Shown here: one piece after another, positions 29,922 through 57,384 of the stretch | Layout: each line of letters opens with the position of its first letter | Position numbering within the stretch: position 1 is the first letter of the stretch | IMG/VR virus record: IMGVR_UViG_3300011253_000949 | Span: 2,614-66,613 of that record | DNA from: a virus | Reading direction: 5' to 3' (one strand) | Length of the DNA: 64,000 bases | Notes under the pieces: generated by a model | Told to the model about the DNA's origin: nothing | What the model saw: the letters and a program-made list of their open reading frames with translations, nothing else | Database searches by the model: none | Translations under genes and position numbers: made by a program

Positions 29922-30515
29922 CTATGCTGCTTCAGAGACAAGGTCTCGGATACTGTCTTCCGAAGCATGATTTGGCAACTCAATTTCTTGAGCCCAGGTG
30001 GGGTAGAAGATGCTCAAGTTACCGCCAAGCTTGACAGTATCATGTGCAATATCAGGGTGTTCTTGCCACTGAACAGCCTTGACCAGATGTTTATTCACAT
30101 ACTGCAAGATCTCAATATCATCAGGGATCAGATAATATTGCGCATCATGGATGTGAGCGATCGGTCGGATCTGTAGTCTGTGTTTGCCTGCACGGACTGT
30201 CTTCATGAATTCAGAAGCAGCTCGTGTGTTGAGCAAGCACCAAGATTGACCCAAAGCATTACCGGCAGTACGGCCTTCGGCCTCTGCCTCATAGGGTGTT
30301 GCAGAATTACCGCGGATAACTTGGTGGAGCAATGGTGTGCGAACACGCAAACCAAAGGCAGCACTAACATAGCCTGTACGTGAGGCTTCATCGAGCTTGG
30401 TTGCTACCCACTCATCACTCACTTTGTAGAGCTCGTGATATTTGTGCTCGATCTGCTGAGCGACAACTTTAGAGAAGCCACCTTTTGCCATCAGGGTGAT
30501 GTAGGTTCCTTGGTA
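29922..30515 (-). CDS. DNA polymerase C-terminal subunit, segment after the 47-nt gap (YQGTYITLM...; motif C HIHDA)
   Basis: Frame reads TAC CAA GGA ACC TAC ATC ACC CTG into the ATG at 30491; AFGLRVRTP, RTAGNALGQS and IHDAQY are family A motifs. Confidence 0.9.
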   Translation of the reverse strand, partial: YQGTYITLMAKGGFSKVVAQQIEHKYHELYKVSDEWVATKLDEASRTGYVSAAFGLRVRTPLLHQVIRGNSATPYEAEAEGRTAGNALGQSWCLLNTRAASEFMKTVRAGKHRLQIRPIAHIHDAQYYLIPDDIEILQYVNKHLVKAVQWQEHPDIAHDTVKLGGNLSIFYPTWAQEIELPNHASEDSIRDLVSEAA

Positions 30516-30562
30516 AGTTCATTTCTCTCATCCCCCCCCTAGTTTACTAGGGGGGGTCAGAG
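30516..30562 (-). other. 47-nt coding gap; putative programmed ribosomal bypass element
   Basis: ACT|CTC TGA CCCCCCCTAG TAAA CTAGGGGGGGG ATGAGAG AAATGA ACT|TAC: matched ACT codons, in-frame stop, strong hairpin. Confidence 0.7.
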
Positions 30563-30703
30563 AGTGAGAGCGAAGGTTGGCATCTTGCTCTCTTGGCGCT
30601 CCTCTGAATACAATGTTTTAGTTGAATTAACCCGTTCTTTGTCATGACGTAAAACAGAAATTTCAGTCACTTCACTTATGGTTTGGTTGATTTTTAGCAC
30701 CAT
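30557..30703 (-). CDS. DNA polymerase C-terminal subunit, first 47-48 codons (ends ...RQESKMPTFALT)
   Basis: Hand translation MVLKINQTISEVTEISVLRHDKERVNSTKTLYSEERQESKMPTFALTL*; GAGGA RBS; carries the first half of motif B. Confidence 0.85.
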   Translation of the reverse strand: MVLKINQTISEVTEISVLRHDKERVNSTKTLYSEERQESKMPTFALTL

Positions 30704-31271
30704 TTATCCTCGCTCTTTGTACGCGTTGAAAACGTAGGGACTCATTTAAATCTCCTTCAATGCCTAGCTCTTTTGCCATGCGTCTAAGTTTTACAGACAG
30801 GTAAGGAACTTTATACGGAACACGTTGTGAAAGTGACCAATACGATTCTCCATTAATGACAGATTGCAAGCAGTCAAAGAATTCATCTTTGGTCATTCGA
30901 TTGGTGTATGTCCGTAGTCCAGTATCGGCAGCATGTTGGCTGTTACCTGAAGAGTTTACCCACTCAAGATTGTGTGTTGAGTTATCAAAACGGTTCCCAT
31001 TTTTATGGTTAACTTCAGACAATCCTAGAGAATTTGGGATGTGGGCTTCAGCCACTAAACGATGGACGTAGTGTGATGTGCCTTTCCCATATTTCCACAA
31101 ACTGACCTGAAGATATTCAACTTGTTTATTTGAAGAAGGACGCAAAATTTTGCCTTTAAAGGGATAGATGGATCCATCACGTCCTAATGTTGACCGATCT
31201 ACTGAACGTACCGTACCAAGCGTAGAGACTTCGTACAGCCCTTCATAATTAACTACCGGTAAGTAGCTCAT
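30672..31271 (-). CDS. NUMOD4-HNH homing endonuclease, free-standing inside the split DNA polymerase gene
   Basis: YEGLYEVSTLGTVRS (NUMOD4); VHRLVAEA...VNHKNGNRFDN...NLEW (HNH); overlaps both polymerase parts. Confidence 0.92.
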   Translation of the reverse strand: MSYLPVVNYEGLYEVSTLGTVRSVDRSTLGRDGSIYPFKGKILRPSSNKQVEYLQVSLWKYGKGTSHYVHRLVAEAHIPNSLGLSEVNHKNGNRFDNSTHNLEWVNSSGNSQHAADTGLRTYTNRMTKDEFFDCLQSVINGESYWSLSQRVPYKVPYLSVKLRRMAKELGIEGDLNESLRFQRVQRARINGAKNQPNHK

Positions 31272-33261
31272 ACAGTTCTGCTCCTTTCATTGATTTGCCC
31301 AGATACTCTACATCCTCGTCAGAGTGGAAGTAAATGTTGGTGTTACCTACTTTCGCTTTATAGCAAGTTGCATTTTCAGGGGCTATTTCGATATCAGGCA
31401 TACGCTCAGCAAAGTAAGACTGAGCTCTCAGACAGTGTCCGTCAAACCCATCCAAGTAGACTTTTAGCTTGTTAGGATCTTTGGTCGTGAGAGCGGAGAT
31501 CATGTCTTCGAGAGAGTTGAAATCCAATCCAATCATGAGCCAACCGTCAGGAGCAGTGAAGCAGCTCTTGATCAGCTTGGCATACTTGGTTCCTGTGGCA
31601 GGAATGGTTTGAAGGTTTGGATTTGAAGAGCTCAGTCGACAGGAAACCGTACCACCCAGGTTGAAGTTACCGAAGAGGTAATGGCATCCATCTGGACCTT
31701 CTACAGCACTCTCCAACGCAGGGATGAAGGTGGTGTAGATTTTGTCCACTGATTTGTAATCCAACAGAGCATTGATGAGATCAATGATGTGAGAATCTTC
31801 AGTGTAGGCTTTGAGCTTTTCAAGCACTTCAGCTTTGGTGGCTGGTTGTTTGGTTTTGGTTCTTTCAATGACCGGTAGACCAAGATGTTCATGCAGAAGG
31901 TTCTGCAGCTGATCTGGACTGTTGGGATTGAATTTGTCGGGGTAGTCAGCCAGAACAACACGCTTGATTTTAAGCTCATTGTTCCGCTTCTCTACCCACT
32001 TTTCAGCAAGCATGTAGGTGAAATCTTGGATGTGCTGTTCTTGATAGATACGCTCAAGTGCACTGTCTCGATCCACCTCCAAAAGAACCTTGGCCTGAGC
32101 CACTTGGTTCATATCGATAGACATACCTGTCAGCTGCATTTGGATGATGTCGATGATTGCTGGCTTGAAGATCTCTTCGTAGAGTTCCAGCTGATCATCT
32201 GCCACCATCTTATCCCACCACTTATGGTACACGTACCACGTGGAGCATGCGTCGATGAGATTGTACTCAAGCAACTCTGGCAAAGGTATCTTGGTGATGT
32301 CCTTGATCTCTTCAACGGCATAGTTGCCGGCAAACTCTTGAGCCTGATCTTTGAGACCCAGCTTGTTACCGGCACAAGTGTTGGTGGCGAGATAGGAGAT
32401 GAGCTTGGTATCATGCCAATTTGAGAGCATGATCTCGAGACCATTGAGCAGACCTTTGGTATCTATCAAATGCTCCATGAAGAGCTGGTAGATTAAGACT
32501 GTGGCATCGTAGCTGATGTTGTGAAACAGGAGAGGTTGCTCAAACTCACAAAAGAATTTGACGAGGAGTTTGCGTACAGCCTCACCATGAATTCCCATGT
32601 CGATGGCAAAGGCAATGCCTTCATGTTGGTTCCAAGCAAAGCTGATGGTGCCAAGACCTGCACTGTAGTGCTTGAGAGAAAAGGCCTCAATATCACAGGC
32701 CAAAGGACATTGCATGTCCATAAGCTTCTGGAGCCATACAGCGATGTCAGCAGGGGTGTGAGGGTACTCAGCAGTCTTGAGGATGTCATGCCCTGGTTCT
32801 TGGTAGGTGCCTTTCATATGGCTCCACAGAGCGTCTAATGCAGAGGCAATACGTACCCGGGTAGGTGTCGGGTTGTAGAAGACCTGACGGTAGTTTGGCA
32901 CAAAGATGACATTGAACTGACCAGCCATGCTGGCAGGGAACTTGTTTGGAAGGACGTAGCCAAGATAGGGATCTACCTTAGCCACGCCTACCAGAGTCTT
33001 GAAGTAATCGCTGTCAGTGACAAGGATGTACTTGGTGTCGATCTCACTGAGCAATTCGAGCATGTCAGTGAGAAAGACTTTCTGATCAACTACCTTGGTT
33101 TTCTTGCCAGTTGTGTAGAGCTGGTAAGCAATGACATCTTCAGGATCGATGAGAGAAGGGTCGAGGTACTCTTTGGTCATACCTGCACTATCAAGCTTGG
33201 GAGCCAAAATGCAGATGGGGTAGGTTGAGTTCTCGTGATCTGTAAATGTCTGGAAGTCCAT
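31249..33261 (-). CDS. DNA polymerase family A (N4 gp39-like), N-terminal subunit with 3'-5' exonuclease and motif A
   Basis: CDIE, FHNISYD, RLSSSNPNLQTIP, motif A GLDFNSLE, DGHCLRA; stops before motif B. Confidence 0.92.
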   Translation of the reverse strand: MDFQTFTDHENSTYPICILAPKLDSAGMTKEYLDPSLIDPEDVIAYQLYTTGKKTKVVDQKVFLTDMLELLSEIDTKYILVTDSDYFKTLVGVAKVDPYLGYVLPNKFPASMAGQFNVIFVPNYRQVFYNPTPTRVRIASALDALWSHMKGTYQEPGHDILKTAEYPHTPADIAVWLQKLMDMQCPLACDIEAFSLKHYSAGLGTISFAWNQHEGIAFAIDMGIHGEAVRKLLVKFFCEFEQPLLFHNISYDATVLIYQLFMEHLIDTKGLLNGLEIMLSNWHDTKLISYLATNTCAGNKLGLKDQAQEFAGNYAVEEIKDITKIPLPELLEYNLIDACSTWYVYHKWWDKMVADDQLELYEEIFKPAIIDIIQMQLTGMSIDMNQVAQAKVLLEVDRDSALERIYQEQHIQDFTYMLAEKWVEKRNNELKIKRVVLADYPDKFNPNSPDQLQNLLHEHLGLPVIERTKTKQPATKAEVLEKLKAYTEDSHIIDLINALLDYKSVDKIYTTFIPALESAVEGPDGCHYLFGNFNLGGTVSCRLSSSNPNLQTIPATGTKYAKLIKSCFTAPDGWLMIGLDFNSLEDMISALTTKDPNKLKVYLDGFDGHCLRAQSYFAERMPDIEIAPENATCYKAKVGNTNIYFHSDEDVEYLGKSMKGAELYELLTGS

Positions 33262-33752
33262 TAGAAGAGCATCCTGCTTGCTAGGTAATGATCAATGACC
33301 CGAAGCGTTGTTGACTCATAGCTATGAAGTTTCATAGGCATGTCGATCAACGTGTACGCTTCAGGTCGGGTGCGTGGAAAGTCAGCGATGACAGGGAGAA
33401 ACTGCATGACTGTATCAGGAAGTGCATCACGCAAATCTTGATAACCTGTGCAGGGAGCCAACAGAGTTTTCAGGCCTTGTTTTAGGATGAGTTCATCCCG
33501 CTCTAAAGCAAGCTTTTCTGTATGTGCATCAAACGCATCTTGGAAGATGGAAGGATGTGCTGGCACCTTACGAGCAAGAGCCCGCGATACACCTGTGAGT
33601 TGGCTATAAAACCTACCAGATACCAGAAAATCGGTGTTTCCTGTCAAAGCGTGCTGTTTGTCATGGAGCTTATCAATCTCATCATCACTCCTGGAGACGG
33701 ATCTTCGCATCAGCTTTTCGATAAGATCAGTGATAAATTCTGAGACAGTCAT
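33261..33752 (-). CDS. Conserved N4-like protein between helicase and polymerase (gp38-like)
   Basis: Synteny; RDALPD and RTRPEAYT motifs. Confidence 0.65.
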   Translation of the reverse strand: MTVSEFITDLIEKLMRRSVSRSDDEIDKLHDKQHALTGNTDFLVSGRFYSQLTGVSRALARKVPAHPSIFQDAFDAHTEKLALERDELILKQGLKTLLAPCTGYQDLRDALPDTVMQFLPVIADFPRTRPEAYTLIDMPMKLHSYESTTLRVIDHYLASRMLF

Positions 33753-35074
33753 GCCGCTACCTTTCCTTGATATTTGGCAGGTAAGTTTCCGTAGAAAAAT
33801 ACCCGTGTGGTTGCTCTAGACACCCCCACAAAAAGCATTCGAGCGACTTGCTCAGGATCGCGGGCAGTGCCTATGTTTCCCAAGTCAATGAACACAGTAT
33901 CATATGTACTGCCTTGGGATTTGTAGACTGTGCAGGCATACTTATCTCGCAGATCCAGGAACTGATTTTTGAGCTGGAAAAATTCAGGCCAGCGTTTCTT
34001 ACGCTTGAGAGCCTGTAGAACACACCGGAGCTGAGCAGGATCATCCACAACATCACATGTCAGAGATGAGACACCAAGAGAGCCTGGAGGAGAGATATGA
34101 AACTTCTTGTAGGTGAGGTCTTTACTGTCTCCAGTCAGCTCAGCATAGCGAGCATTGTATGTGTCTGGTTCAATCTCTGTAATGAGAATTTCACGTTCGA
34201 CATTCAGAGCAAATTTTCCAGACATGTATGACTGAGCTACAACAAGCTCATCTCCAGCTGTGAACTCTGGTGGGAGTCCACGAACCTCGCGGATGAATGC
34301 ATTGTAATCTTGCACACGTGAGTTGGTGTAGCAGAGGATCCGGACAGCTGGATTGGGCAGCTTGAAGTAATGCTCCAATGCAGTCTGCATGTCTTCCGGT
34401 CCAAGATAGTCAATGACTCCTGGGACTTCGACCATGGGATGAAACTCGCCTGCCTCAACTGTGTTTCTCAGCTGGGTACATAGATCCATCAAAGCAGGTT
34501 GATCCGCGTTACGGACAGGCTTCGATAGGAAGGCAAAGTTTGACTTATCAACATTCAGATAGACCGGTGAAATTTCTTCACCTACGGGAGACATCTGAGC
34601 ATGATCACCCACAAAAACTATCTTACTGTCTTTGAATGCATCCATAATGAAATCATACATCTGTGTGTCGATCATGGATGATTCATCAATGAAGAGGATG
34701 TGATTGTGACGAACACGATATTGACGTGTTGGTTCAAGAAAGGTCTTACCTGTTTTTTGGTTCTCTTTGACAGTGACACCTAAGAATGAGTGCACTGTTG
34801 AAACAGGCTTGTTGAGGGTTTTTTCGAGGACTTCAGCAGCTTTGTTGGTGGTCGCTGTGAAAGAGACTTCATGGTACTCAGGCTTGATATTCATCAAGGT
34901 ACAGGCATCATGGTAGGTCTGCATCACGTTGTTGGAGATGTACTGCATCAGTGTTGTCTTACCAACACCTGCACCACCTGAGAGAACAAAGGTAGGTGCA
35001 TCGCTCATGAGAAATTGGAAGAACTGATCCGCAACTGCCTGTTGATCTGGGGTAGGTACAAACGTGGTAGTCAT
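33749..35074 (-). CDS. Dda/RecD-like SF1 DNA helicase (N4 gp37-like)
   Basis: GGAGVGKT, IDESSM, VGDHAQ, TVYKSQGSTY and VGVSRA motifs. Confidence 0.93.
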   Translation of the reverse strand: MTTTFVPTPDQQAVADQFFQFLMSDAPTFVLSGGAGVGKTTLMQYISNNVMQTYHDACTLMNIKPEYHEVSFTATTNKAAEVLEKTLNKPVSTVHSFLGVTVKENQKTGKTFLEPTRQYRVRHNHILFIDESSMIDTQMYDFIMDAFKDSKIVFVGDHAQMSPVGEEISPVYLNVDKSNFAFLSKPVRNADQPALMDLCTQLRNTVEAGEFHPMVEVPGVIDYLGPEDMQTALEHYFKLPNPAVRILCYTNSRVQDYNAFIREVRGLPPEFTAGDELVVAQSYMSGKFALNVEREILITEIEPDTYNARYAELTGDSKDLTYKKFHISPPGSLGVSSLTCDVVDDPAQLRCVLQALKRKKRWPEFFQLKNQFLDLRDKYACTVYKSQGSTYDTVFIDLGNIGTARDPEQVARMLFVGVSRATTRVFFYGNLPAKYQGKVAA

Positions 35075-35077
35075 GAC

Positions 35078-35371
35078 TTATGCCTCCAGCATCAGGCGTG
35101 CTTTGAGATCATCATCAAGCAGCTCTGCTTTGGGAATTACCTTGGTTCCAAGACGATTGAACAAGCCACGGTAGAGCGGCACGTCTGTCTCGATATGGAT
35201 GAGGAAGGTGTTGGGTTTGGATGTGGATCCATCTGACTTGAGCAGGATGAATGAGTTGTTTGAGAGACCGGCAAACAGATACCCGTTACGTTCGTACAGG
35301 TTAACCTGCTTCTGGACTCCACCGGTTGAGATGATCGCTTGATCTCCATCACGGAGTTTGAAGAGAGACAT
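35078..35371 (-). CDS. Hypothetical protein
   Basis: 97-aa ORF with AAGGA RBS. Confidence 0.65.
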   Translation of the reverse strand: MSLFKLRDGDQAIISTGGVQKQVNLYERNGYLFAGLSNNSFILLKSDGSTSKPNTFLIHIETDVPLYRGLFNRLGTKVIPKAELLDDDLKARLMLEA

Positions 35372-35516
35372 ATTTGGTCCTTTCTAGAGGCTGAAACCGA
35401 AAAAAGTATCTAACGATATGAGGTGGTTCGACACGATTTGGTGTGGTGTGGTATTATTTAGGTGACATTTAGGTAAAACTGTGAATGAATACAGATGGGA
35501 AAACAGGAGAACTTAG

Positions 35517-36212
35517 ATGCCAGTCATCACATTTGCGTCTTCGAAAGGAGGCGCAGGAAAAACCACATCTGCAATCATCCTCGCAACCACATTGGCTCAG
35601 GCCCAACGTGTATGCTTGATTGATGCTGACCCTGCACAGCGGCTTATGTCGTGGGCCAATAAAGGTCAGTTACCAGACAATCTCAAGGTATTTTCTTCCG
35701 AAGGGGAGAGGTACATCCATGATGAGATCGATCGAGGTAAGGCAGAATACGCCTACACCATTGTAGATCTTGAAGGGGCAGCAACCAGATTGAATGCTTT
35801 CGCCATGGGCGAGAGTGATCTGGTGATCATCCCAATGTCAGACGAACAGCCCGATGCAGAGGGAGCCATCGAGACACTCTCTCAGCTGCTCTTAGAAGCC
35901 AAGGCCATGCGTAGGGAGATACCGGTAAGGATCCTCTTTGCACGTACCCAGGCGGCTGTAAAATCACGGTTAGAACGCTCTCTGAACGATCAGGTCCGAC
36001 AAAAGATAGGCAGCTTCACAACTGAGCTGCACAGACGGACTGCATATTCATCTCTGCACAGCATTGGTGGCACGCTCTACGACATGGAACAGAGCGAAGT
36101 CACTGGGGTAGCCAAAGCCATCCACAACGCTGAGCTCTTTGTTGAGGAGCTGCACAGAGCAATGGAATGGATCCAAGAGATCACCAAGAGGGAGACCAAC
36201 AATGTCGCATAA
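35517..36212 (+). CDS. parA: ParA family partition ATPase (type Ib, no N-terminal HTH)
   Basis: Deviant Walker A KGGAGKTT, LIDADP, IVD; CAGGAG RBS; opposite orientation to the surrounding phage genes. Confidence 0.92.
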   Translation: MPVITFASSKGGAGKTTSAIILATTLAQAQRVCLIDADPAQRLMSWANKGQLPDNLKVFSSEGERYIHDEIDRGKAEYAYTIVDLEGAATRLNAFAMGESDLVIIPMSDEQPDAEGAIETLSQLLLEAKAMRREIPVRILFARTQAAVKSRLERSLNDQVRQKIGSFTTELHRRTAYSSLHSIGGTLYDMEQSEVTGVAKAIHNAELFVEELHRAMEWIQEITKRETNNVA

Positions 36213-36435
36213 ACCTTTGAACTTCACACCGCTTGATACTGCCACTGCCGAACCAACAAAACGCTGGAAGAGTAGGGAAGCACCAAAGACGATGCAGACC
36301 TCACTAAGAATGCGGCCGGAGACCTATGATGAGTTTAGGATGATGTGTCTGCACGAGAGACGTACCAATGGTGAAATGCTTGAAGTGTTGATGAACCACT
36401 ACAAGAAGACCGGTACACCAGACATCCAAAGGTGA
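36202..36435 (+). CDS. Ribbon-helix-helix partition partner (ParG-like)
   Basis: 77 aa, overlaps the parA end; flexible N-terminus, then QTSLRM strand and two helices. Confidence 0.7.
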   Translation: MSHKPLNFTPLDTATAEPTKRWKSREAPKTMQTSLRMRPETYDEFRMMCLHERRTNGEMLEVLMNHYKKTGTPDIQR

Positions 36436-36463
36436 AGAATATGGGGAGCCTTAGTTGGCTCCT

Positions 36464-36706
36464 CTATCCTGCTTTCGTATTTACGTAAGACAAAAGTGTC
36501 TTTGGAAGATCAGAAAGTATGACAGGCAGAAGGGGAAGTTGGAATCGGCCGGCAGCTTCATGATGTGCATGCGCTACAGCTTTCTGAGCCTCTTCTGAGG
36601 TGAAGAGCTTAGCGTCACTGATGTGAACAGTGTAGGATGTTGGCAAGGTACGAACCCAGGCATTCATGGGGATAGACCACAGCAAGTAGGTTTTCATATC
36701 TGACAT
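36464..36706 (-). CDS. Hypothetical protein
   Basis: YLLWS...W...YT...AKLFTSEEA small phage-type protein; start uncertain. Confidence 0.55.
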   Translation of the reverse strand: MSDMKTYLLWSIPMNAWVRTLPTSYTVHISDAKLFTSEEAQKAVAHAHHEAAGRFQLPLLPVILSDLPKTLLSYVNTKAG

Positions 36707-36783
36707 ATGCGTTCTCTTTTGTTCATGGTTCATAGATTCAGTGCTTGAATCCACAAAATAAATCAGTGGGTTAACCTCTCAAA

Positions 36784-36864
36784 TGTGAGAGACATGGGGA
36801 GTCTGGTGAGGAATATGGGGGGAAAGGTGAGAGATATGGGGAACAAAGGTGAGGTATCTGGGGA
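36784..36864 (+). repeat. Four 17-bp iterons (putative plasmid origin)
   Basis: TGTGAGAGACATGGGGA (36784), GGTGAGGAATATGGGGG (36805), GGTGAGAGATATGGGGA (36826), GGTGAGGTATCTGGGGA (36848); 21-22 bp spacing; extra copies at 36431 and inverted at 37793-37809. Confidence 0.85.
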
Positions 36865-36866
36865 GA

Positions 36867-37733
36867 TTACTTCAGCTGTTTGAGTCCATTTCTTGTCACT
36901 CTGTTGAGGCTTGGTGATGGTTCCAACACCAAAGAAACCTGATCAGATATGCGTGCTCTTCGACCAACCTTAGATCGTTGAAGCTCTTGCCATGCAGCTT
37001 TCACTTCATCTTTGTCTTTGAGCCACCAGCCAATACGTAGATGGGTGACTTTGTTGCCTGTCTTGATGGGCAAGACACTGATGTTGAACTGAGCCAAAGC
37101 ATTAAGCTCTTGGGAGATTGGTTTGATGACATGCTTGTTGAGATCGGAGAACCTGGGATACTTGGATCCCTCTACGCCAAGCATGGCACGCATCTCTTCG
37201 AGCGTAAGTACCTGTGAGGTTTTGTTTGTAAGGCCTGCCCATTGAGAGACATGCTCATAGAAGCTGATGCTGTACTTTGATGAGAGTGCCACCAAGACAG
37301 GAAGTGAAATCTTTCCCCAGATGGTAGAGTTTCTGAGGATGTTCACGAGACGCTTATCAAAGCTGTAAGTGAGGACACCGGCAGGACGGGTAGGGGAATC
37401 CATGTCATTGCCACCCAGGAATTGAACACGGGTAGTTGATCCATCTGGATGCTTGACCGTTATCAGCGCCTGCATGAGGGCAACCACAGCTTCCTCTACC
37501 ACATCATAGCCTTTGTGGTTCGAAGCAATGAGATCGTCTATTTCGATGGTGTAATCACGTCCTTCTTCAATGCCTTGTTGATGGGCATTGTGCCAAAGCA
37601 ATGTGATCGATCGACGGGCATTCAAGCTGAGTGCTTGATGTCCTGTGATCTGGATCAACTCAGAAGGTTTGGTGGCATGATCAGCTCTGGGAGTGAGATC
37701 AATCACCAACAAAGGTTCGTTCTTTTTGGTCAT
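36867..37733 (-). CDS. Plasmid replication initiator (Rep_3 / RepB-like)
   Basis: KPSELI, LSSKYSISFYE, LEEMRAMLGVEGSKYPRFSDLNKHVIKP...ELN and KTGNKV are typical of Rep_3 winged-helix initiators. Confidence 0.9.
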   Translation of the reverse strand: MTKKNEPLLVIDLTPRADHATKPSELIQITGHQALSLNARRSITLLWHNAHQQGIEEGRDYTIEIDDLIASNHKGYDVVEEAVVALMQALITVKHPDGSTTRVQFLGGNDMDSPTRPAGVLTYSFDKRLVNILRNSTIWGKISLPVLVALSSKYSISFYEHVSQWAGLTNKTSQVLTLEEMRAMLGVEGSKYPRFSDLNKHVIKPISQELNALAQFNISVLPIKTGNKVTHLRIGWWLKDKDEVKAAWQELQRSKVGRRARISDQVSLVLEPSPSLNRVTRNGLKQLK

Positions 37734-37813
37734 TAGGAGAAGATAAAGTGAGTCTGAGGAAAGTGAAAGTAGCTAATGCTGTTGGTTCACTTTCCCCAAA
37801 TTCTTCACCTTTA

Positions 37814-37868
37814 GAAAAAAGATCTCTCCCCTAGTAGGTATCGGGGTTAGCGATGAAGGGGAGAGATC
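37814..37868 (-). terminator. Terminator after thyX, insulating rep
   Basis: GATCTCTCCCC...GGGGAGAGATC stem with T7 run on the - strand. Confidence 0.65.
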
Positions 37869-37910: not shown

Positions 37911-39878
37911 TTAAGTTACGTGATTTTCATTTGGTACAGTCTTACGGAATTGAACCCATCCTGAGAGGTTGCCGTGAAGATGCTCATTTTCCCAAGCTTC
38001 TCCTCCATACAAACGATCAGGTGTAGCTTGATGCTCCAGTGGAGAGGCATGCACACGGTCAGAGCTGACCAGCATGTCATACCGCTCAAGCTCGCGCTCA
38101 TAGGATGCATCACCGTCAAAAGGCTTGTAGGAGATACGTGCACAACGAGCAGCTGAGATCTTCTGAAGAACGGGCATAACTTGGAAAGTATTAGCCCGAA
38201 CTCCTGGAGCTAGTTTTACCATTGATGCAGCTCCATACCAGTCATCTTGAGTGATGTAAGGCAAGTGCCATTCCCCTGGCTCCAGGATCTGTACTTCAGC
38301 ATCGTCGATGGCTTGTTTCACCAGACGTGCCAGATCCTGAAGGTGTGGTTCAGCGTCAGCATGATCACGGAGCCACAGGAAGTTATCCCATTCACATGAA
38401 GTGATCAGTGTGTCGATCCAAGAGAAGGGCTCCAGCAGACGGTTGGGGATCTGCTTGTGATAGCCAGCTTCCATGTAGGCTTCAGCAACTTCCACTGCTG
38501 TATTACGGGCTACGAGCCATGCTTCTTTTTGAGTGTAAAAACATTCAGCTGGATCCATGGAAGGATCAGGAAGATAGATTTCTTCATCACAATCTTCAGA
38601 CGCTTGCATGCCCTTCTGGTTCTTGCCCCAGTGCCAAGGGATGAACGGCATGGAGGTGCATTCCAGCAGCATGGTCTTGACCGGTACAGCACGTGAGCTG
38701 CGAGCATTGCGTGAGTTGTGAACAACTACACCATCGGCAAAGAAGTTCGGAAACTCTCCAGCGATTTCGAGATCATAAGTATCGCATTCGCCTTCGCTTA
38801 AAATGCTATCGACCAGCGTGCCGACTGATCCAAGGGGAACTCCAATCTGCCAGCCCTGCGTCTCATGCAGATCCTTATGCGCGTCGGGATTGACGGCGAT
38901 CACATTATCCAGGTCGAAGGCCAGGTCAGGACGCTCATGCCGTGGTTTGACGTGATGCAGATGGAATGACCGTTCCAGCAATTCTCCAGTAATGGCGCAT
39001 TTGTGATACTGTCGCTGCGCAATAGTGCTGCGGTTCTGACGTGTCCAGGTCTGAACCCATTGACCGTCAATCTTATTGTGTCTGTTGGGGTCAGCATTTT
39101 CCCCTGCGCCGTAACGATAAGTGATGATCTGATCCTGACCTGGAACAATATCTTCAATACGCTTCCAGCCAGAGTCAGTGAAGACGCGGTGATCTTTTGA
39201 GCCACAGACAGAGAATGACCCTGCCGAGACGCGAAAAACCTCTTTCTTTCCTGAGACAATCACGTCCTTGACAGTAGACGTTTGCACTTCTCCAGTGCGT
39301 TCGTTGATCTGCCTGATTTGCATTTTGGACAAACGAGACTTCAATGAAAAGCTACGATTTCCGGTGCTTTCACGCCAGTCCATCCAGTAGCGCCCATAAG
39401 CGCACCACTTTCCTCCCCGCTTGTGAGCGCCGTAAATTTTACCTTTGCGACACAGCGCGTTGAGATTACTCGTAACGCTCATACCAAGTTCAGTCGCAAT
39501 CTCTTTGGCCGTGTAAGTCTTGGCGGCATCAAGATGATCAAGAGTCTTACCATTGTGACGAGAAGTTGCGCCCTTTGCGGCACCGTTGATCCATTTGTCA
39601 GCGAACTCACGTAGGCTCATGGAATGAACACGCCGGGTATTTTTGCCGTGCTGACCACCGGGAAGATCAAAGTCGAGCATGGCATCACCTGCGAGACAGA
39701 ACACCCGATGGGTCATGACTTCACCATGAATGATCCGCGGATAGCGCATACGGATGGTGTAGAGGGGTGGTCCTTGGTCATCGCCATCTACATTGACAGC
39801 ACGTGAGGCCAGGATCACTTCGACCTGCATCTGAGGCTGGCCTGAATGCGTGAAGGTCTTGTAGGTCATCATATTCAT
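37911..39878 (-). CDS. thyX: Flavin-dependent thymidylate synthase ThyX containing an intein
   Basis: THRVF^SRNARSSRAVP after intein removal; NRLLEPF, LRDH, SAARCARISY and HASPLEHQA motifs. Confidence 0.92.
   Translation of the reverse strand: MNMMTYKTFTHSGQPQMQVEVILASRAVNVDGDDQGPPLYTIRMRYPRIIHGEVMTHRVFCLAGDAMLDFDLPGGQHGKNTRRVHSMSLREFADKWINGAAKGATSRHNGKTLDHLDAAKTYTAKEIATELGMSVTSNLNALCRKGKIYGAHKRGGKWCAYGRYWMDWRESTGNRSFSLKSRLSKMQIRQINERTGEVQTSTVKDVIVSGKKEVFRVSAGSFSVCGSKDHRVFTDSGWKRIEDIVPGQDQIITYRYGAGENADPNRHNKIDGQWVQTWTRQNRSTIAQRQYHKCAITGELLERSFHLHHVKPRHERPDLAFDLDNVIAVNPDAHKDLHETQGWQIGVPLGSVGTLVDSILSEGECDTYDLEIAGEFPNFFADGVVVHNSRNARSSRAVPVKTMLLECTSMPFIPWHWGKNQKGMQASEDCDEEIYLPDPSMDPAECFYTQKEAWLVARNTAVEVAEAYMEAGYHKQIPNRLLEPFSWIDTLITSCEWDNFLWLRDHADAEPHLQDLARLVKQAIDDAEVQILEPGEWHLPYITQDDWYGAASMVKLAPGVRANTFQVMPVLQKISAARCARISYKPFDGDASYERELERYDMLVSSDRVHASPLEHQATPDRLYGGEAWENEHLHGNLSGWVQFRKTVPNENHVT
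38715..39698 (-). mobile_element. Intein (328 aa) with HTH and HNH domains
   Basis: Begins CLAGDA; block B CGSKDHRVFT; ends YDLEI...NFFADGVVVHN followed by Ser; internal HHVKP...N...H. Confidence 0.93.
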
Positions 39879-40165
39879 TCTGCTGGTTCCTCAGAATATT
39901 TGTAAAATTGCAAAACCGCATCATAATCTCCCATCTTAGGGGAGAGTTGCCAGATGGGTATGTTGAGTGAATCATCCCGCACTAGGATACCTTGCTCAGC
40001 CATCATGTTGAGTGCTTCACCGGTGCTGGAACGCAGGCTTGGGGAGGTACGCTCAAGGCGCATACAGATATCTGTTGTGGTTCTCGCTCTGGTGTCTTTC
40101 ATCACATCAAGGATACGGCTTTTGAGATGGGACGGACGACCACGTTCATTAATAAGATTTTGCAT
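39875..40165 (-). CDS. Putative winged-HTH protein
   Basis: ILDVM...TTTDIC...ALNMMAEQGIL pattern. Confidence 0.55.
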   Translation of the reverse strand: MQNLINERGRPSHLKSRILDVMKDTRARTTTDICMRLERTSPSLRSSTGEALNMMAEQGILVRDDSLNIPIWQLSPKMGDYDAVLQFYKYSEEPAE

Positions 40166-46793: not shown

Positions 46794-47768
46794 CATTTGT
46801 TAAACGAGACGTTACTCTCGCCCTTCAGATTCCATGATTGTAGTGGAATCCATACTTAGCTTCAGCAGCTTGGCGAGCTGCTTTTGCATCATCTATGTTG
46901 TCATATGAGCCGAGAGCGATTTGCTTACGGTTCACCATGATGTAGGCGTGATACTTCCCAGAGGGAAGGACACGAACACCAGTGACACCAGACGTGTTGC
47001 TTTTCTTTTGGCTCATGTTGAGTTGGTTTAGCCTGCTAGATACTTCTCGCAGATTGCTCCAGCGGTTATTGGATCGATCGTGGTCAAGATGATCCACTTG
47101 ATCAGGCCAAACACCTATTTGCATAAGCCAGATGATACGATGTGCCAGATAGTCTTTTCCGCCTATAGAAACAGATAAGTAACCTTGACTGTGTAGATAA
47201 GTCGCAAGGTCTCCTTTGGCTCCTTTAATCGTATCAAGTTTGTGACACAGCTCACCAGAGGCAGGGGTATACTCATAAAGGTTGAGTAGGCTTGTCTGGG
47301 TGAACTCACGAAGATTGACGATACGGTGCGTACATTTTTTACATAGATGTCCGATCCGGCTTTTCTTCGCATCATATAAACCAACCTCAAAGTCAGAATG
47401 GCATTGAGCACATTCACACAAAACTTTGAATTTTGTTAGTTTCATCTTGATCTGCCACGTTTGCAACATTGTATGTACCTTGATTAAGCCATGCACGTTG
47501 TTTTTGTGCTTAGCCTAACCTTGGCAAGAAGTCCACGGCTTTCACTGTGGTATCGGACTATATCATCACCCTTCTGCAGAGCAGTTAGGGGCGAGGCGCT
47601 TCGGAGGGGACTTCCCTCTCCTACTCCCTTGCGGGATAGTCTCTGAACCTTCAATGCAGTTTGGACCTGCAAAGCTTGGCTGCTGATTGGCATAGGATTT
47701 CTCCCTTAGCTTTCCAGCAATTCACCTCGTTCTTCGACAGGGATTTCTCCCTGAAGGACCGTTAATTC
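46794..47768 (-). mobile_element. Group I intron 2 (975 nt)
   Basis: P1 GACU/GGUC with U-G at the 5' splice site; P AATTGCTGGAAA, Q AATCAGCAG, R TTCAGAGACTA, S GATATAGTC; terminal G at 46794. Confidence 0.92.
46825..47496 (-). CDS. Intron-encoded HNH/AP2 homing endonuclease (start uncertain)
   Basis: AHRIIW...VDHLDHDRSNNRWSNLR; NTSGVTGV AP2-like tail; N-terminal CxxC pairs. Confidence 0.88.
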   Translation of the reverse strand: MHGLIKVHTMLQTWQIKMKLTKFKVLCECAQCHSDFEVGLYDAKKSRIGHLCKKCTHRIVNLREFTQTSLLNLYEYTPASGELCHKLDTIKGAKGDLATYLHSQGYLSVSIGGKDYLAHRIIWLMQIGVWPDQVDHLDHDRSNNRWSNLREVSSRLNQLNMSQKKSNTSGVTGVRVLPSGKYHAYIMVNRKQIALGSYDNIDDAKAARQAAEAKYGFHYNHGI

Positions 47769-48386
47769 AGTCATGGATGGAGAGAACAGGGAAGGGGTGC
47801 TTTGGCATGTTGTCGAGCAAGTCAAAGAGTTCTTCCAAGGGAGCATAGTGGATTGAATCTTCGTCGATGTAGTCCACGATCCGAGCAGAAAGGAAGCCTG
47901 TCTCGTGGAAGTTCTTTGCCAGGGTCCGAACCATTGAGATGTTTGGGCTGATCTTATCTGCAGGACGTGAGCTGTGAGACAGAGCAATAGCTGCAAAGCA
48001 CAAACCCATAGCCTTTACCATTTGGCTCCGATCATAGGTACAGCGCCGTGAGACTTCACGAACGATCATACCATCAATGGAGTGGGTGATGTTGGCCGGC
48101 AGTGACTTGCCGGTTTCAGTGGGTGTGTTGATCTTGGTGACAACATCGTAGGGACGTTCCAAGAAGTGAACTGTCTCATGTTGAAAATCCATGACTTTGG
48201 TTTTGACATGGAAGTTGTCAGGAAGAGTCCACTCATAGACCAGAGCTTCAGGATTCCACAGAGCCAAGAGAGCTTCGTTGAGTTGCCAGATGCCAGGGGC
48301 TTCTTCGTTCATGACTTGCAAGAACATGTCGAGCATTTCCCCTTCACCAAATACCTCTTTAGGGACAGCCTTAGAGCCATACAATG
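47769..48386 (-). CDS. RNAP II subunit 2, exon 2
   Basis: (S)LYGSKAVP, WTLPDNF, ANITHSIDG and SIHD motifs. Confidence 0.92.
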
Positions 48387-49262
48387 CGTTTTGTTCAACA
48401 AGGGTTCGTTACTCCCTTGCCCGTCCACTTGCTCATGTGTGGACCGCTACATGTTACCATGCAGACCAGACTATATCTTCACCCTCTTACGAGGGGTTCT
48501 GCGCTTCGAGCCACTTGGCTCTACTCCCTCACGGGATAGTCGTTGCACGTTCCGATACTTCAACCACTCTACGACACATCTCAATAAAATCGAGAGTTGT
48601 CATATCACCCTTGGCTCTGTTTGCGGCCCAAGATAGCCACTGTATGTTGCCTTTTACATATCCCAATTCAGGATATATTTTGTCCAATGAAGGACAAAGA
48701 GGATGTTTCTTCTCAATCACAAATGGGCAACCTGTGGCAGCACATTTGAGGTCTTGAAGATTGATTAGCTCGTAGAGATAGTCCTCATCAATATCAGGGG
48801 TCACCTGATTGTATTTGCTGGCTCTGCTTTTGGCTTCAGTGATCCTCCCTCGTATGAGAGACATCAGCTTTCTATCCTCTGGCGGAACCTTCTTAAGTTT
48901 ACCTGTCCCTCGATACCCTTGACCATGTTTCTCACTGTAGGCTTTTCTATATGCACGAGCTTTTGCTGCGTTACATGGCTTACAGTACGAATGGTAACTT
49001 TGGGACGTCGGGTGTTTGAAGTTGTCAGACTTCTTCCAATTTTCATTTAATTTGGCTTTGGTAAACTCTTGAAGAGGTTTCGTCTCACCGCATTCTTTGC
49101 AGCTACGAGTGGTTGATTGATCCATAGAAGCATTCCTTAATTGCTTATACGGATTTGTATTGGCTTCGCTCAGGATTGTCCACAGCTTGACCTGTTGGGA
49201 GGTTCCCTGAATTCACAGAATTGCGTATCACCAGTTACCCGGTGAGTGACCCCTTTATGTTA
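48387..49262 (-). mobile_element. Group I intron 1 (876 nt)
   Basis: P1 UGACCU/GGGUCA; P AATTCAGGGAA, Q AATCCTGAG, R GCAACGACTA, S AAGATATAGTC; terminal G at 48387; splicing gives AIMT-S-LYG. Confidence 0.93.
48529..49125 (-). CDS. Intron-encoded His-Me finger (HNH-like) endonuclease
   Basis: CKEC..CKPC zinc ribbon; PSLDKI...GYVKGNIQW...N..K; ORF runs into the intron R element. Confidence 0.8.
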   Translation of the reverse strand: MDQSTTRSCKECGETKPLQEFTKAKLNENWKKSDNFKHPTSQSYHSYCKPCNAAKARAYRKAYSEKHGQGYRGTGKLKKVPPEDRKLMSLIRGRITEAKSRASKYNQVTPDIDEDYLYELINLQDLKCAATGCPFVIEKKHPLCPSLDKIYPELGYVKGNIQWLSWAANRAKGDMTTLDFIEMCRRVVEVSERATTIP

Positions 49263-49674
49263 AGGTCATGATAGCTTGCTTCACATCTGCTCGATCGATC
49301 TTAGACACGGTTCCTAGGCGTGCACACATGATCTCATAGATGTTGGTGTAGAGATCCTCCCGATCACCTGTGCTGATGACATTGCACAGAGAGGCTGACT
49401 TGCTGCATCCAACCAGGATAGCCAGAATTTGAGCCCCAGAGGCTGTGGCATCAAGGCTGATGGGGTAGGAGATAGGCTTGCCCTGTGAGGCTGTTCTGTA
49501 GGCCTGTACGCCAGCGTAGTAGAGGGCTGGTTCTTCTGCTTGATCAATGAGATTTTTAAGCAGTGGTTCATTGGTCTGGAACCATGAGATACGATCAGTC
49601 CAGCTTTCTTTGTCGAGACCAAAGTTACCAGCAATGTCGATCATCAGATATTCTGTAGGTGTGAAAGTTTGCAT
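49263..49674 (-). CDS. RNAP II subunit 2, exon 1
   Basis: YLMIDIAGNFGLDK, motif A LDATASGAQ, motif B start RADVKQAIMT; the three exons total 1215 nt = 404 aa. Confidence 0.93.
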
Positions 49675-56056: not shown

Positions 56057-56332
56057 TTATGAGGGATTTTTGACCCATGAAACTATCAGACAAACGTCGA
56101 TCCTACGGCCATCTTGTGTGGTGACAGGGGTGATGATGTGCTGTGTGTCTGCGGTATCTTCCCTGGCTTTGAATCCTTGGCTCCAGACCAGTTCTCCTAG
56201 GGAATAAGGCTCATCTATCCAGTCACCTGAGTCTATGCTCGCGCGTGTGGCATATAGAGGTAACAGTCTGTTTTGTTTAATATCTCTAAGTACTCTTCCT
56301 TTAGAGAAGCTTAGTATATTAGAACCTTTCAT
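56057..56332 (-). CDS. Hypothetical protein
   Basis: AGGAG RBS upstream of the ATG; 91 aa. Confidence 0.5.
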   Translation of the reverse strand: MKGSNILSFSKGRVLRDIKQNRLLPLYATRASIDSGDWIDEPYSLGELVWSQGFKAREDTADTQHIITPVTTQDGRRIDVCLIVSWVKNPS

Positions 56333-56517
56333 ACCTACATCTCCTATACATATATTTGATGTAATATCCCGACTAGGAAGTACGTAGTACTTCCGTAGGA
56401 AGGGATATTACTTATACAAGATAAACTAGATAGTACAAGAAAACCTATTGACTACCTAAAGCTTGTAAACATATCTAAGGGTATAATCTCTTAATATTTC
56501 ATAAGGTTAGATGATAT

Positions 56518-57384
56518 ATGCTTACTGTACCTGAGCTTAAAGAATGTTTACCTAAGCATCTTAGAACAGCAGCTACGCAAGAGTTTGCGGACAAGATCAA
56601 CACGATCGCTTCTGAACCAGAGACAGCTGAGTATATCAGGGATAACTTTGTCTCGTACATCAAGGTGCTTGAAGAGGGTAAGTTCAAGACTGAGGATTAC
56701 CTCAATGCGGTGTCCTATGTCAGTTATAAGCTGATGGGTCGAACCAACCAGGATGCGTACAAGGCAGCGTTTCCGGAGCGGTATAAGGCACTGGTGGCGA
56801 GGGGAGCCACGGATAAGGATATCTCGGCTTACGTGTCGGCGTATAACAAGAATAAGCTGGTGAACCTGATCCTACATCAATCCATGGTTCCCTCTTGGGT
56901 GTTGAACCAAGATCACTTCCAGAGAGCGATTAATACTCAGGCCGATCTTATGATCAACGCCAACAGTGAGAAGGTGAGAACGGACGCGGCTAACTCTTTG
57001 CTGACACATTTGAAGCCACCTGAGACCAAGCAGATGAAGGTCGATATTGGGATCCGTGAGTCAGAGGGTATGAGTGAGCTTAAGACCATGCTGAATGCCA
57101 TGGCTACGCGACAGCAGGAGCTTATTGGACAGGGTGTGACGACACGGGAGATTGCTCATCAGAAGCTTGGTTCTCCTTTGCCTGCTTTGGTAAACCACAC
57201 CACTCCACACCAACATGATATGATTGAGGCAACTGCAAAAGATGTGACGCCCAAAGAAGATAAGTTGAAGTCAATTTTTCAGCCAGAGCCGTCTTCGGCA
57301 TCCGTGCCGGATGCCACGACAGGCTCACATGAACCTGGGACCGTGAGTAAAGCCAATCCTTTGACATCGTTTCGGCCGGAGTAA
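56518..57384 (+). CDS. N4 gp69-like protein (possible terminase small subunit)
   Basis: YLNAVSYVSYKLMG, AYNKNKLVN and SEKVRTDAANSLLTHLKPPE motifs; upstream of terminase. Confidence 0.8.
   Translation: MLTVPELKECLPKHLRTAATQEFADKINTIASEPETAEYIRDNFVSYIKVLEEGKFKTEDYLNAVSYVSYKLMGRTNQDAYKAAFPERYKALVARGATDKDISAYVSAYNKNKLVNLILHQSMVPSWVLNQDHFQRAINTQADLMINANSEKVRTDAANSLLTHLKPPETKQMKVDIGIRESEGMSELKTMLNAMATRQQELIGQGVTTREIAHQKLGSPLPALVNHTTPHQHDMIEATAKDVTPKEDKLKSIFQPEPSSASVPDATTGSHEPGTVSKANPLTSFRPE

Follow-up and report, generated by a model that had tools for sequence, protein, structure and literature searches.

Here we describe a plasmid-type replication and partition module in a 64,000-nt stretch of viral DNA (the window), which corresponds to bases 2614-66613 of the 66,613-bp IMG/VR virus record IMGVR_UViG_3300011253_000949, a metagenomic viral contig rather than an isolate replicon, classed as linear and approximately 90% complete. 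The window phage is N4-like (Schitoviridae) with a typical genome, and the module, comprising a Rep_3-family initiator gene with its iterons and a parA operon with a small partner open reading frame (ORF), is located between the genes for a Dda-like helicase and thyX. As this plasmid replication and partition cassette is conserved across a clade, these phages may persist in dividing cells as plasmids. Our favoured reading, to which we attach roughly even credence, is that the module serves episomal maintenance, with the phage genome kept as a low-copy plasmid in dividing cells, either as a phage-plasmid or in a stabilised carrier state. Indeed, one integrase-free replicon unites the core genes of a phage with genes for plasmid replication and partition, the gene content by which phage-plasmids are recognised, and we propose the N4-like clade as a new candidate phage-plasmid group.

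A scan of IMG/VR with the helicase returned 12 loci, three of which end before the module, and all that reach upstream contain ParA, the small ORF and Rep; every helicase relative of at least 49% identity that extends that far carries the module. A ParA-profile scan of the same database, used in place of a single-protein ParA scan that was too insensitive (3 loci), gave 18 loci, 14 of them N4-like with the helicase or DNA polymerase (DNAP) gene adjacent, for a total of 15 once the record of the window is counted. Of these 15 contigs, 13 also encode Rep, and the remaining two end 0.2-0.6 kb past the small ORF. An earlier suggestion to look for Rep and ParA among N4-like relatives is thus borne out by 14 further IMG/VR contigs with ParA, the set falling into seven lineages and including G001, a terminally repeated genome of 70,741 bp with a completeness rating of 100%, and G008, of 72,475 bp and rated 98% complete. 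Between lineages, identity amounts to 45-61% for the helicase, 63-72% for ParA and 51-67% for Rep. The helicase adjoins parA in all seven, and the strands are constant, with rep sharing the strand of the helicase and par facing the other way, also in those lineages where thyX or approximately 4 kb lies between the rep and par halves. Compared to the related IMG/VR contig L003, dN/dS is 0.028 for ParA, 0.021 for the small ORF and 0.040 for Rep, all below the 0.069 of the helicase, and the GC content at third codon positions (GC3) of rep and parA follows that of each phage's own DNAP, from 0.48 to 0.89. In the small trees that were built for ParA and Rep (12 and 17 rows), the seven phage ParAs form one clade with a Shimodaira-Hasegawa-like approximate likelihood-ratio (SH-aLRT) support of 99. 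Among 50,697 phage records, neither the module DNA (distant blastn) nor Rep (tblastn) found a match, and ParA matched 13 records, none of them N4-like. A ParA-profile scan of Joint Genome Institute metagenome contigs, which responds to the generic KGGAGKTT pattern and is not a census, placed 2 of at least 80 loci at clade level.

The arrangement is reproduced in material from other studies, whose contigs bridge the same junctions at the module edges, where the initial annotation had raised the prospect of a chimera. Contigs of 56,459 bp (run X4) and 69,588 bp (run X8), approximately 97-98% identical, span the helicase, parA, the small ORF, ORF96, the iterons, rep and thyX, and the sole interruption within the module stretch is a 162-nt insert at 36463/36466, beside a GC-rich hairpin; in thyX, both are precisely devoid of the 984-nt intein. 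In run X11, from a third study, the same stretch is recovered in several contigs that break at 36462/36466, one of them with an AT-rich loose end, and the IMG/VR contigs L002 and L003 display the gene order of the window. Furthermore, the GC content of the module (48.5%) equates to that of the window (48.4%) and not to that of the closest plasmid (61.8%). The features of the module and its flanks are listed below in window coordinates.

33749..35074, minus strand: Dda-like helicase (PHROG 325 at 4.4e-113), a phage core gene and the left flank of the module in all lineages
35078..35371, minus strand: ORF97, without Pfam, PHROG or NCBIfam match, present only in the window's own lineage
35428..35509, plus strand: parA control region
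35428-35457, plus strand: sigma-70-like promoter TCGACA-18-TATTAT (10/12 in the promoter scan)
35436-35456: GGTGTG repeat boxes, putative operator or centromere
35462-35467: GTGACA box upstream of parA
35497-35509: conserved GGGAAAAC-GGAG leader upstream of parA
35517..36212, plus strand: parA, a ParF/VirC1-like Walker-type partition ATPase gene, against the flow of the phage middle genes
36202..36435, plus strand: ORF of the 77-aa partner protein, overlapping the parA stop by 11 nt
36427..36448, plus strand: fifth, distal iteron, conserved in L003, which overlaps the small-ORF stop
36445..36462: GC-rich terminator-like hairpin between the convergent par operon and ORF96
36464..36754, minus strand: ORF96, probably 89 aa from an ATG at 36733, lineage-specific and without family match
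36780..36865, plus strand: four tandem iterons in 22-nt units, ending 1 nt before the rep stop codon, the presumed oriV
36867..37733, minus strand: rep, a Rep_3-family initiator gene with WH1 and WH2 domains
37793..37815, minus strand: inverted iteron, 60 bp upstream of the rep start, the presumed autorepression operator
37814..37868, minus strand: terminator-like element with a perfect 12-bp stem (37821-37832/37857-37868), a 24-nt loop and then a minus-strand T-run
37911..39878, minus strand: thyX with an HNH-domain intein (PHROG 85 at 3.4e-72, residues 387-652), the right flank of the module

Every element that the initial annotation had listed was recovered in place or within a few bases, and the replication half is as it described. 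The Rep_3-type initiator passes the Pfam cut-offs with both domains (Rep3_C 61 bits against 21.1, Rep3_N 35.7 bits against 22.4), and has no match by sequence in the PDB. The four phased iterons at the rep 3' end start at 36780, 36801, 36822 and 36844 (spacing 21, 21 and 22). With the fifth copy at the end of the par operon this amounts to five direct copies, spaced by 353, 21, 21 and 22, and a further, inverted copy upstream of rep is 91% complementary over 23 nt, its placement hinting at autorepression. A scan of the entire window with the iteron consensus, allowing up to two mismatches, gave six matches, all six inside the module; shuffled sequences averaged 0.28 matches, and 0 of 100 reached six. 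Analogously, each of four other lineages (L004, L006, L026 and L028) possesses an iteron sequence of its own, in 3-4 copies phased at 21-23 bp right after the rep stop, and all four have an inverted iteron 54-91 bp upstream of the rep start, a layout for which shuffles give 0-0.02 matches per region. We consider this co-variation of Rep and iterons, in a layout that is the one of autoregulated iteron plasmids, the strongest sign of a working replicon. The terminator-like element separates thyX from rep, with the inverted iteron abutting the hairpin, which escaped the terminator scan as its 24-nt loop exceeds the 8-nt limit; judged by this arrangement, the module looks insulated and autoregulated.

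Two perfect DnaA boxes are situated between rep and the iterons in L006. A possible DnaA box in the window, 'GAATCCACA' at 36748, was rejected, having two mismatches and not being conserved in L003. ORF96 was considered as non-coding origin DNA, which is ruled out by the third-position bias of its differences to L003 (14/8/26 by codon position) and a dN/dS of 0.19; the corresponding ratio for ORF97 is 0.14.

For the partition half, an intact operon of parA and a ribbon-helix-helix (RHH) gene, oriented opposite to the phage genes, had been proposed. The orientation is correct, with parA and the small ORF both on the plus strand, and so is the ATPase. ParA (231 aa) carries the deviant Walker A motif KGGAGKTT, is devoid of an N-terminal DNA-binding domain, and matches Pfam VirC1 (1.4e-19), CbiA and AAA_31, PHROG 164 'ParA-like partition protein' (1.3e-29) and, over residues 1-195, the PDB entries of ParF from TP228 (4dzz) and 5u1g (E 5e-19). 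The NCBIfam ParA_partition model is matched at 2.9e-29, with 102 bits against an equivalog cut-off of 180. Among six phage ParAs, 118 columns are invariant, including KGGAGKTT. The RHH assignment of the partner, on the other hand, is compatible with the data and goes no further, as no Foldseek match reaches an E of 0.001 or lower. The 77-aa protein belongs to no family by Pfam, PHROG or NCBIfam, a PDB profile search returned McdB alone (E 0.024), and its Foldseek list consists mostly of RHH proteins (Arc, ParG 1p94 and CopG), all at E above 0.9. Across an alignment of seven sequences, R21 is invariant within an otherwise variable tail and the core QxSxRM...TNGEM is conserved, and in the AlphaFold2 model (mean predicted local distance difference test score, pLDDT, of 71) helices 39-52 and 56-70 follow the conserved extended QxSxRM stretch. 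The predicted strand-helix-helix is compatible with an RHH protein of ParG-like layout, including a disordered N-terminal tail; ParG itself has an arginine finger. Seven of the eight N4-like loci compared have, upstream of parA, boxes of the TTTGGTGTGATTT type along with the (C)GTGACA box and the GGGAAAAC.GGAG leader, and likewise GGTGTG(A)TTT boxes; in L026 the repeat is a variant. By the promoter scan, promoter-like sites are no more numerous in the parA region than in shuffles.

The surrounding genome bears the marks of Schitoviridae: a giant virion RNA polymerase (vRNAP; a 3606-aa ORF, PHROG 2206 at E 0), the two-subunit RNAPII (PHROGs 2051 and 2166), an N4-type capsid (major capsid protein, PHROG 1357), portal (PHROG 1216) and replication genes (primase, PHROG 2135; exonuclease, PHROG 2139), together with DNAP, helicase, single-stranded DNA-binding protein (SSB), a Sak4-like protein and terminase. 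The DNAP is 52.5-54.6% identical to those of N4 and N4-like phages. As the phage retains the full N4-type replisome (DNAP, primase, helicase, exonuclease, SSB and Sak4), Rep is an addition and not a replacement. In phage N4, rIIA and rIIB occupy the slot between the dCTP deaminase gp26 and the helicase gp37; as the initial annotation noted, the module is found in that very slot, and no rIIA or rIIB ORFs are present in the window. Its observation that an integrase is missing extends from the window to the 2.6 kb of the record outside it and to two near-complete relatives. A search with the tyrosine integrase family PF00589 was likewise negative in G000, G001 (100% complete), G008 (98%) and G002, with the control genomes all matched. 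The window contains no tRNA genes.

The closest relatives of Rep are on plasmids. Rep matches 1161 PLSDB records, and the five best (59-66% identity) originate from alphaproteobacterial plasmids of 16-45 kb, with Pukyongiella, Paracoccus and Thioclava (Rhodobacterales), Acuticoccus (Hyphomicrobiales) and Acidibrevibacterium (Rhodospirillales) as hosts; the host of the phages is probably alphaproteobacterial as well. In all five plasmids a ParA and a small protein are encoded near Rep, the annotations being CopG family, 'stability/partitioning determinant' or ParB, and two of the five have 21-bp phased iterons with the core TGTGAG....CGGGG in common with the phage family. Such iteron plasmids, exemplified by Pukyongiella litopenaei p4 and Paracoccus sanguinis pPspOM44, are hence direct relatives with ParA-small protein-Rep cassettes, and share with the module a WH1 and WH2 Rep, iterons phased at 21-22 bp with a common core, the inverted iteron upstream of rep, and a ParA with a small DNA-binding-type protein beside Rep. 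In contrast to them, the module resides inside a lytic-type phage genome of 66-72 kb, its halves are convergent where p4 has rep and par in one co-directional array, and the window copy is without a DnaA box at up to one mismatch. The phage ParAs moreover form their own clade, 33-53% identical to the ParAs of three of the five plasmids. Rep_3 iteron plasmids have well-established paradigms in pPS10, pSC101, R6K and F RepE. Assignment to a named Rhodobacterales replicon type (RepA or RepB) was considered and is not possible from the accessible portion of PMC9025767.

In metagenomes the Rep subfamily comprises 1080 proteins at E of 1e-30 or below, and the Rep relatives P0042 and P0083 are encoded on contigs of 68-70 kb. 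Homologous ParA (54-60%) and Rep (54-61%) occur in two non-N4 phage contigs, one of 54,608 bp (G005; L010/L059) with terminal repeats, rated 100% complete and encoding its own DNAP, primase-helicase and small terminase subunit, and one of 45,811 bp (L007/L058) with a tape-measure protein and a RecE-like exonuclease. Both may represent further phage-plasmid candidates on the same backbone family.

If the module maintains the phage as an episome, the following sequence of events can be envisaged. The ancestor of the clade would have acquired the cassette, in a single event, from an iteron plasmid of Alphaproteobacteria, and selection would have kept it since. Following injection, the linear genome with its terminal repeats would circularise, and rep would be transcribed by the host RNA polymerase from its own promoter, with the hairpin presumably shielding it against read-through from thyX and Rep presumably repressing this promoter through the inverted iteron, as the layout suggests. 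By the paradigm of Rep_3 plasmids, Rep monomers on the four iterons would recruit the host replisome for theta replication, with autorepression and iteron handcuffing controlling the copy number. The operon of parA and the small ORF would act as a type Ib (ParF/ParG-like) partition system, congruent with its homology and conservation, for which the conserved GGTGTG(A)TTT boxes upstream of parA may constitute the operator or centromere. The phage's own complete N4-type replisome would serve lytic growth.

Several observations weigh against this episomal reading. The rep gene lies inside the replication cluster, on the strand of the phage middle genes. A single origin is weakly supported for Rep: the phage Reps fall on one side of a branch with an SH-aLRT of 48. 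The initial annotation had called the replicon complete, which is not fully borne out in this copy: a scan for DnaA boxes with up to one mismatch matched the window 22 times, where 14.3 are expected, and the module 0 times, and there is no marked AT-rich stretch at the origin, the lowest GC being 40% against 48% overall. By Pfam, repressor, helix-turn-helix (HTH) and antirepressor domains are absent from 45 further ORFs, many small ORFs being without assignment, and repressor or HTH domains are also absent from the module ORFs by Pfam, PHROG and NCBIfam. The 173x contig depth in one seawater run (a Logan contig depth, not taken as copy number) would fit lytic blooms also. Finally, injected vRNAP starts every N4-like infection, which leaves the establishment of latency unexplained.

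No bacterial carrier was seen either. The claim that the phage persists as a low-copy plasmid remains an inference: the runs holding the stretch are metagenomes, in 20 of 20 cases among the matches listed, and searches of bacterial assemblies yielded no module-bearing N4-like element. In PLSDB the clade has no N4-like record, the capsid query returning a single match, from Acinetobacter. A GTDB-wide capsid scan recovered one locus, on a contig of a Gemmobacter metagenome-assembled genome (MAG); being limited to two peptide patterns, its empty result elsewhere is weak evidence. The N4-type capsid is found in 0 of 400 other sampled Rhodobacterales genomes. The searches of bacterial hosts being incomplete, these results amount to absence of evidence only.

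Some of these points lend themselves to an alternative, in which Rep and the iterons supply an extra origin for the productive cycle and ParA has been repurposed, without a heritable plasmid state. For example, host enzymes could perform early theta replication before the N4 replisome is in place, and ParA could position or organise the replicating DNA or have another role at the infection stage. The co-direction of rep with the helicase and DNAP inside the replication cluster, in all seven lineages, agrees with such a role, as do the lack of a repressor in the ORFs scanned, the lack of a carrier in PLSDB, the listed runs, the GTDB-wide capsid scan and the Rhodobacterales sample, and the high metagenome depth. 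We nevertheless deem it unlikely, since the N4-type replisome is complete without Rep and cultured N4-like phages among the 50,697 phage records manage without such a Rep or ParA. Furthermore, the terminator-like hairpin before rep and the presumed iteron operator of its own are the plasmid style of low, autoregulated expression, and the par operon runs counter to phage transcription, with a promoter-like site of host type in front of it. Partition systems (ParABS) pay off only across cell divisions, and the slot of the module is occupied by an integrase in a relative.

A more specific form of the episomal reading would have true phage-plasmids with latency that is free of a repressor. Early promoters would be served by vRNAP only and later gene classes would need early products, so that loss of vRNAP would lock the plasmid off; the locked copy, made by Rep and segregated by ParA, would switch on only with some vRNAP made. 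Late N4 transcription is performed by host RNA polymerase. Silence without a repressor through vRNAP dependence, as the initial annotation envisaged, would fit N4 biology but does not account for the onset of latency while the injected vRNAP is present, and we regard this specific form as doubtful at present.

Alternatively, the cassette could act against resident plasmids of the same family, through incompatibility or Rep titration, or against co-infecting relatives, and not in self-maintenance. In favour of such interference, the core TGTGAG....CGGGG is common to the iterons of two related plasmids and the phage family, and Rhodobacterales are, according to the accessible part of PMC9025767, rich in low-copy plasmids. 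However, this function needs neither a cognate Rep-iteron pair with an autoregulatory operator conserved in every lineage, nor a ParA and partner held at a dN/dS of 0.02-0.03, and the iterons have diverged between lineages along with Rep, as in a self-contained replicon. We judge it highly improbable. The notion of a chimeric assembly, or of a functionless passenger lately acquired from a plasmid, to which the metagenomic origin and the plasmid-gene relatives of the module might point, is refuted to the point of being negligible by identical junctions in contigs of other studies and in 14 other IMG/VR contigs, by a GC content that matches the window and not the closest plasmid, by GC3 tracking each phage, and by a dN/dS of 0.02-0.04.

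Relatives with other signs of persistence speak further in favour of episomal maintenance. The contig of the Gemmobacter MAG (G006:C39; L042, L043) measures 86,904 bp and is N4-like (capsid 68% and helicase 46% identical), and a tyrosine integrase (L043:9518-10615) follows directly after the dCTP deaminase, that is, in the slot of the module. This element may be an integrated N4-like prophage. The module Rep and ParA were not found in the MAG with the window queries. Approximately 9 kb of large ORFs without PHROG matches come after the integrase. In Acinetobacter baumannii, the 75,126-bp circular 'plasmid' pRBH2-3 (L013, NZ_CP110465.1), from a complete assembly, is an N4-like genome that encodes, besides the N4 capsid, a ParA, a recombinase and an HTH protein. 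Across 96% of its first 25 kb it aligns with phage vB_IME_Ab2712 (OK149216.1) at 98.7% identity, and the ParAs of the two are 100% identical. No paper was found under the name of either pRBH2-3 or phage Ab2712. The ParA of this Acinetobacter lineage is 32% identical over 111 residues to that of the module, and the lineage has no match to the module Rep.

N4-like phages are a textbook case of a lytic family and, being considered incapable of lysogeny, a frequent choice in phage therapy. Non-lytic behavior has been described for some members: the N4-like phage Ab09 is, according to the available part of the report, kept through colony passages as a pseudolysogen (PMC6467409), and a metagenomic survey of N4-like viruses lists integrase, transposase and diversity-generating retroelements in uncultivated viral genomes and proviruses as marks of lysogeny in its accessible text (PMC10654107). 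The words 'plasmid' and 'partition' are unused in that part of the survey, whose 54 'lysogenic' genomes might include some of the contigs studied here. Similarly, 'plasmid', 'partition', 'lysogen', 'temperate' and 'prophage' are all absent from the accessible text of the family proposal (PMC7650795). A literature search, covering mostly titles and the starts of abstracts, revealed no paper describing an N4-like or Schitoviridae phage-plasmid.

The module-bearing phages resemble these temperate or persistent N4-like viruses in combining an N4-like genome with a proposed option of non-lytic persistence. In the Gemmobacter relative an integrase takes up this slot; in the clade, a Rep_3/iteron replicon and a ParF-type system would underlie persistence instead of integration. 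Such alternation is reminiscent of cluster A mycobacteriophages, where, as reported by Dedrick et al. in 2016, the integrase gives way to parABS at one locus and the prophage is said to be extrachromosomal. In both groups, integrase and partition cassette alternate at one slot; the cluster A phages differ in having known repressors and other means of replication, whereas the phages here have a dedicated initiator with iterons and no repressor known. Established phage-plasmid groups such as P1, N15 and SSU5, reportedly covered by the 2021 census of Pfeifer et al., likewise unite a full phage gene set with plasmid replication and partition genes in the absence of an integrase. What distinguishes the present case from known phage-plasmids is the phage part, Schitoviridae with a virion RNA polymerase.

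A comparable setting, aquatic and probably alphaproteobacterial, is offered by the phage-plasmid of the marine Roseobacter Tritonibacter mobilis (PMC10090143), which in the accessible part of that paper has a C1-type repressor, parAB, a P4-family primase and a toxin-antitoxin pair, with a phage of 40-50 kb and carriage demonstrated. The repressor, parAB, P4-family primase and toxin-antitoxin pair described there were not found here, and the clade is, unlike that element, known from metagenomic sequence alone. The occurrence of one plasmid-backbone family in unrelated phage types, as observed here, has its counterpart in the backbone-phage fusions of the same paper, as far as its available text goes.

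Should the episomal reading be true, a new phage backbone would be added to the known phage-plasmid groups, represented by a deep aquatic clade with a cassette under strong selection. The integrase-bearing relative, the Acinetobacter 'plasmid' and the module together suggest that persistence options evolved repeatedly in one N4-like slot. The clade would also be a test case for latency in a phage whose program starts from an injected polymerase, and, should the repressor-free form hold, it would represent a new lysogeny logic with a polymerase cascade in place of a repressor. As the cassette is small (approximately 2.5 kb), the claim is directly testable by a standard replication and stability assay.

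Additional features were noted outside the module. Set against the N4 virion map, the contig is a circular permutation in which the early-gene end (minus strand) meets the terminase-side late genes (plus strand) at 56332-56518. This junction is the site of the physical ends of N4, and fits a collapse of terminal repeats in assembly without proving a circular form. Between the dCTP deaminase and thyX, a 96-aa ORF (39875-40165, minus strand) has no Pfam, PHROG or NCBIfam match and no counterpart in other lineages. The intein of thyX, at approximately 38714-39697, has clear PHROG HNH matches, with Pfam Intein_splicing and HNH below cut-off, and since near-identical contigs in three of four runs lack exactly 984 nt in thyX (38713 to 39698), it is polymorphic in the population. 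The DNAP gene (29922-33261) is split by an HNH endonuclease ORF (30672-31271) and is a single ORF of 851-859 aa in L003-L006. Rfam identified one group I intron in the whole window and nothing in the module; this intron (RF00028, 76 bits; 47533-47778, minus strand) is located beside an HNH endonuclease ORF, in a region with ORFs at 46825-47496 and 48529-49125. The gene for the RNAPII large subunit is fragmented (47767-48384 and 49255-49674), and an endonuclease VII-like ORF separates the fragments.

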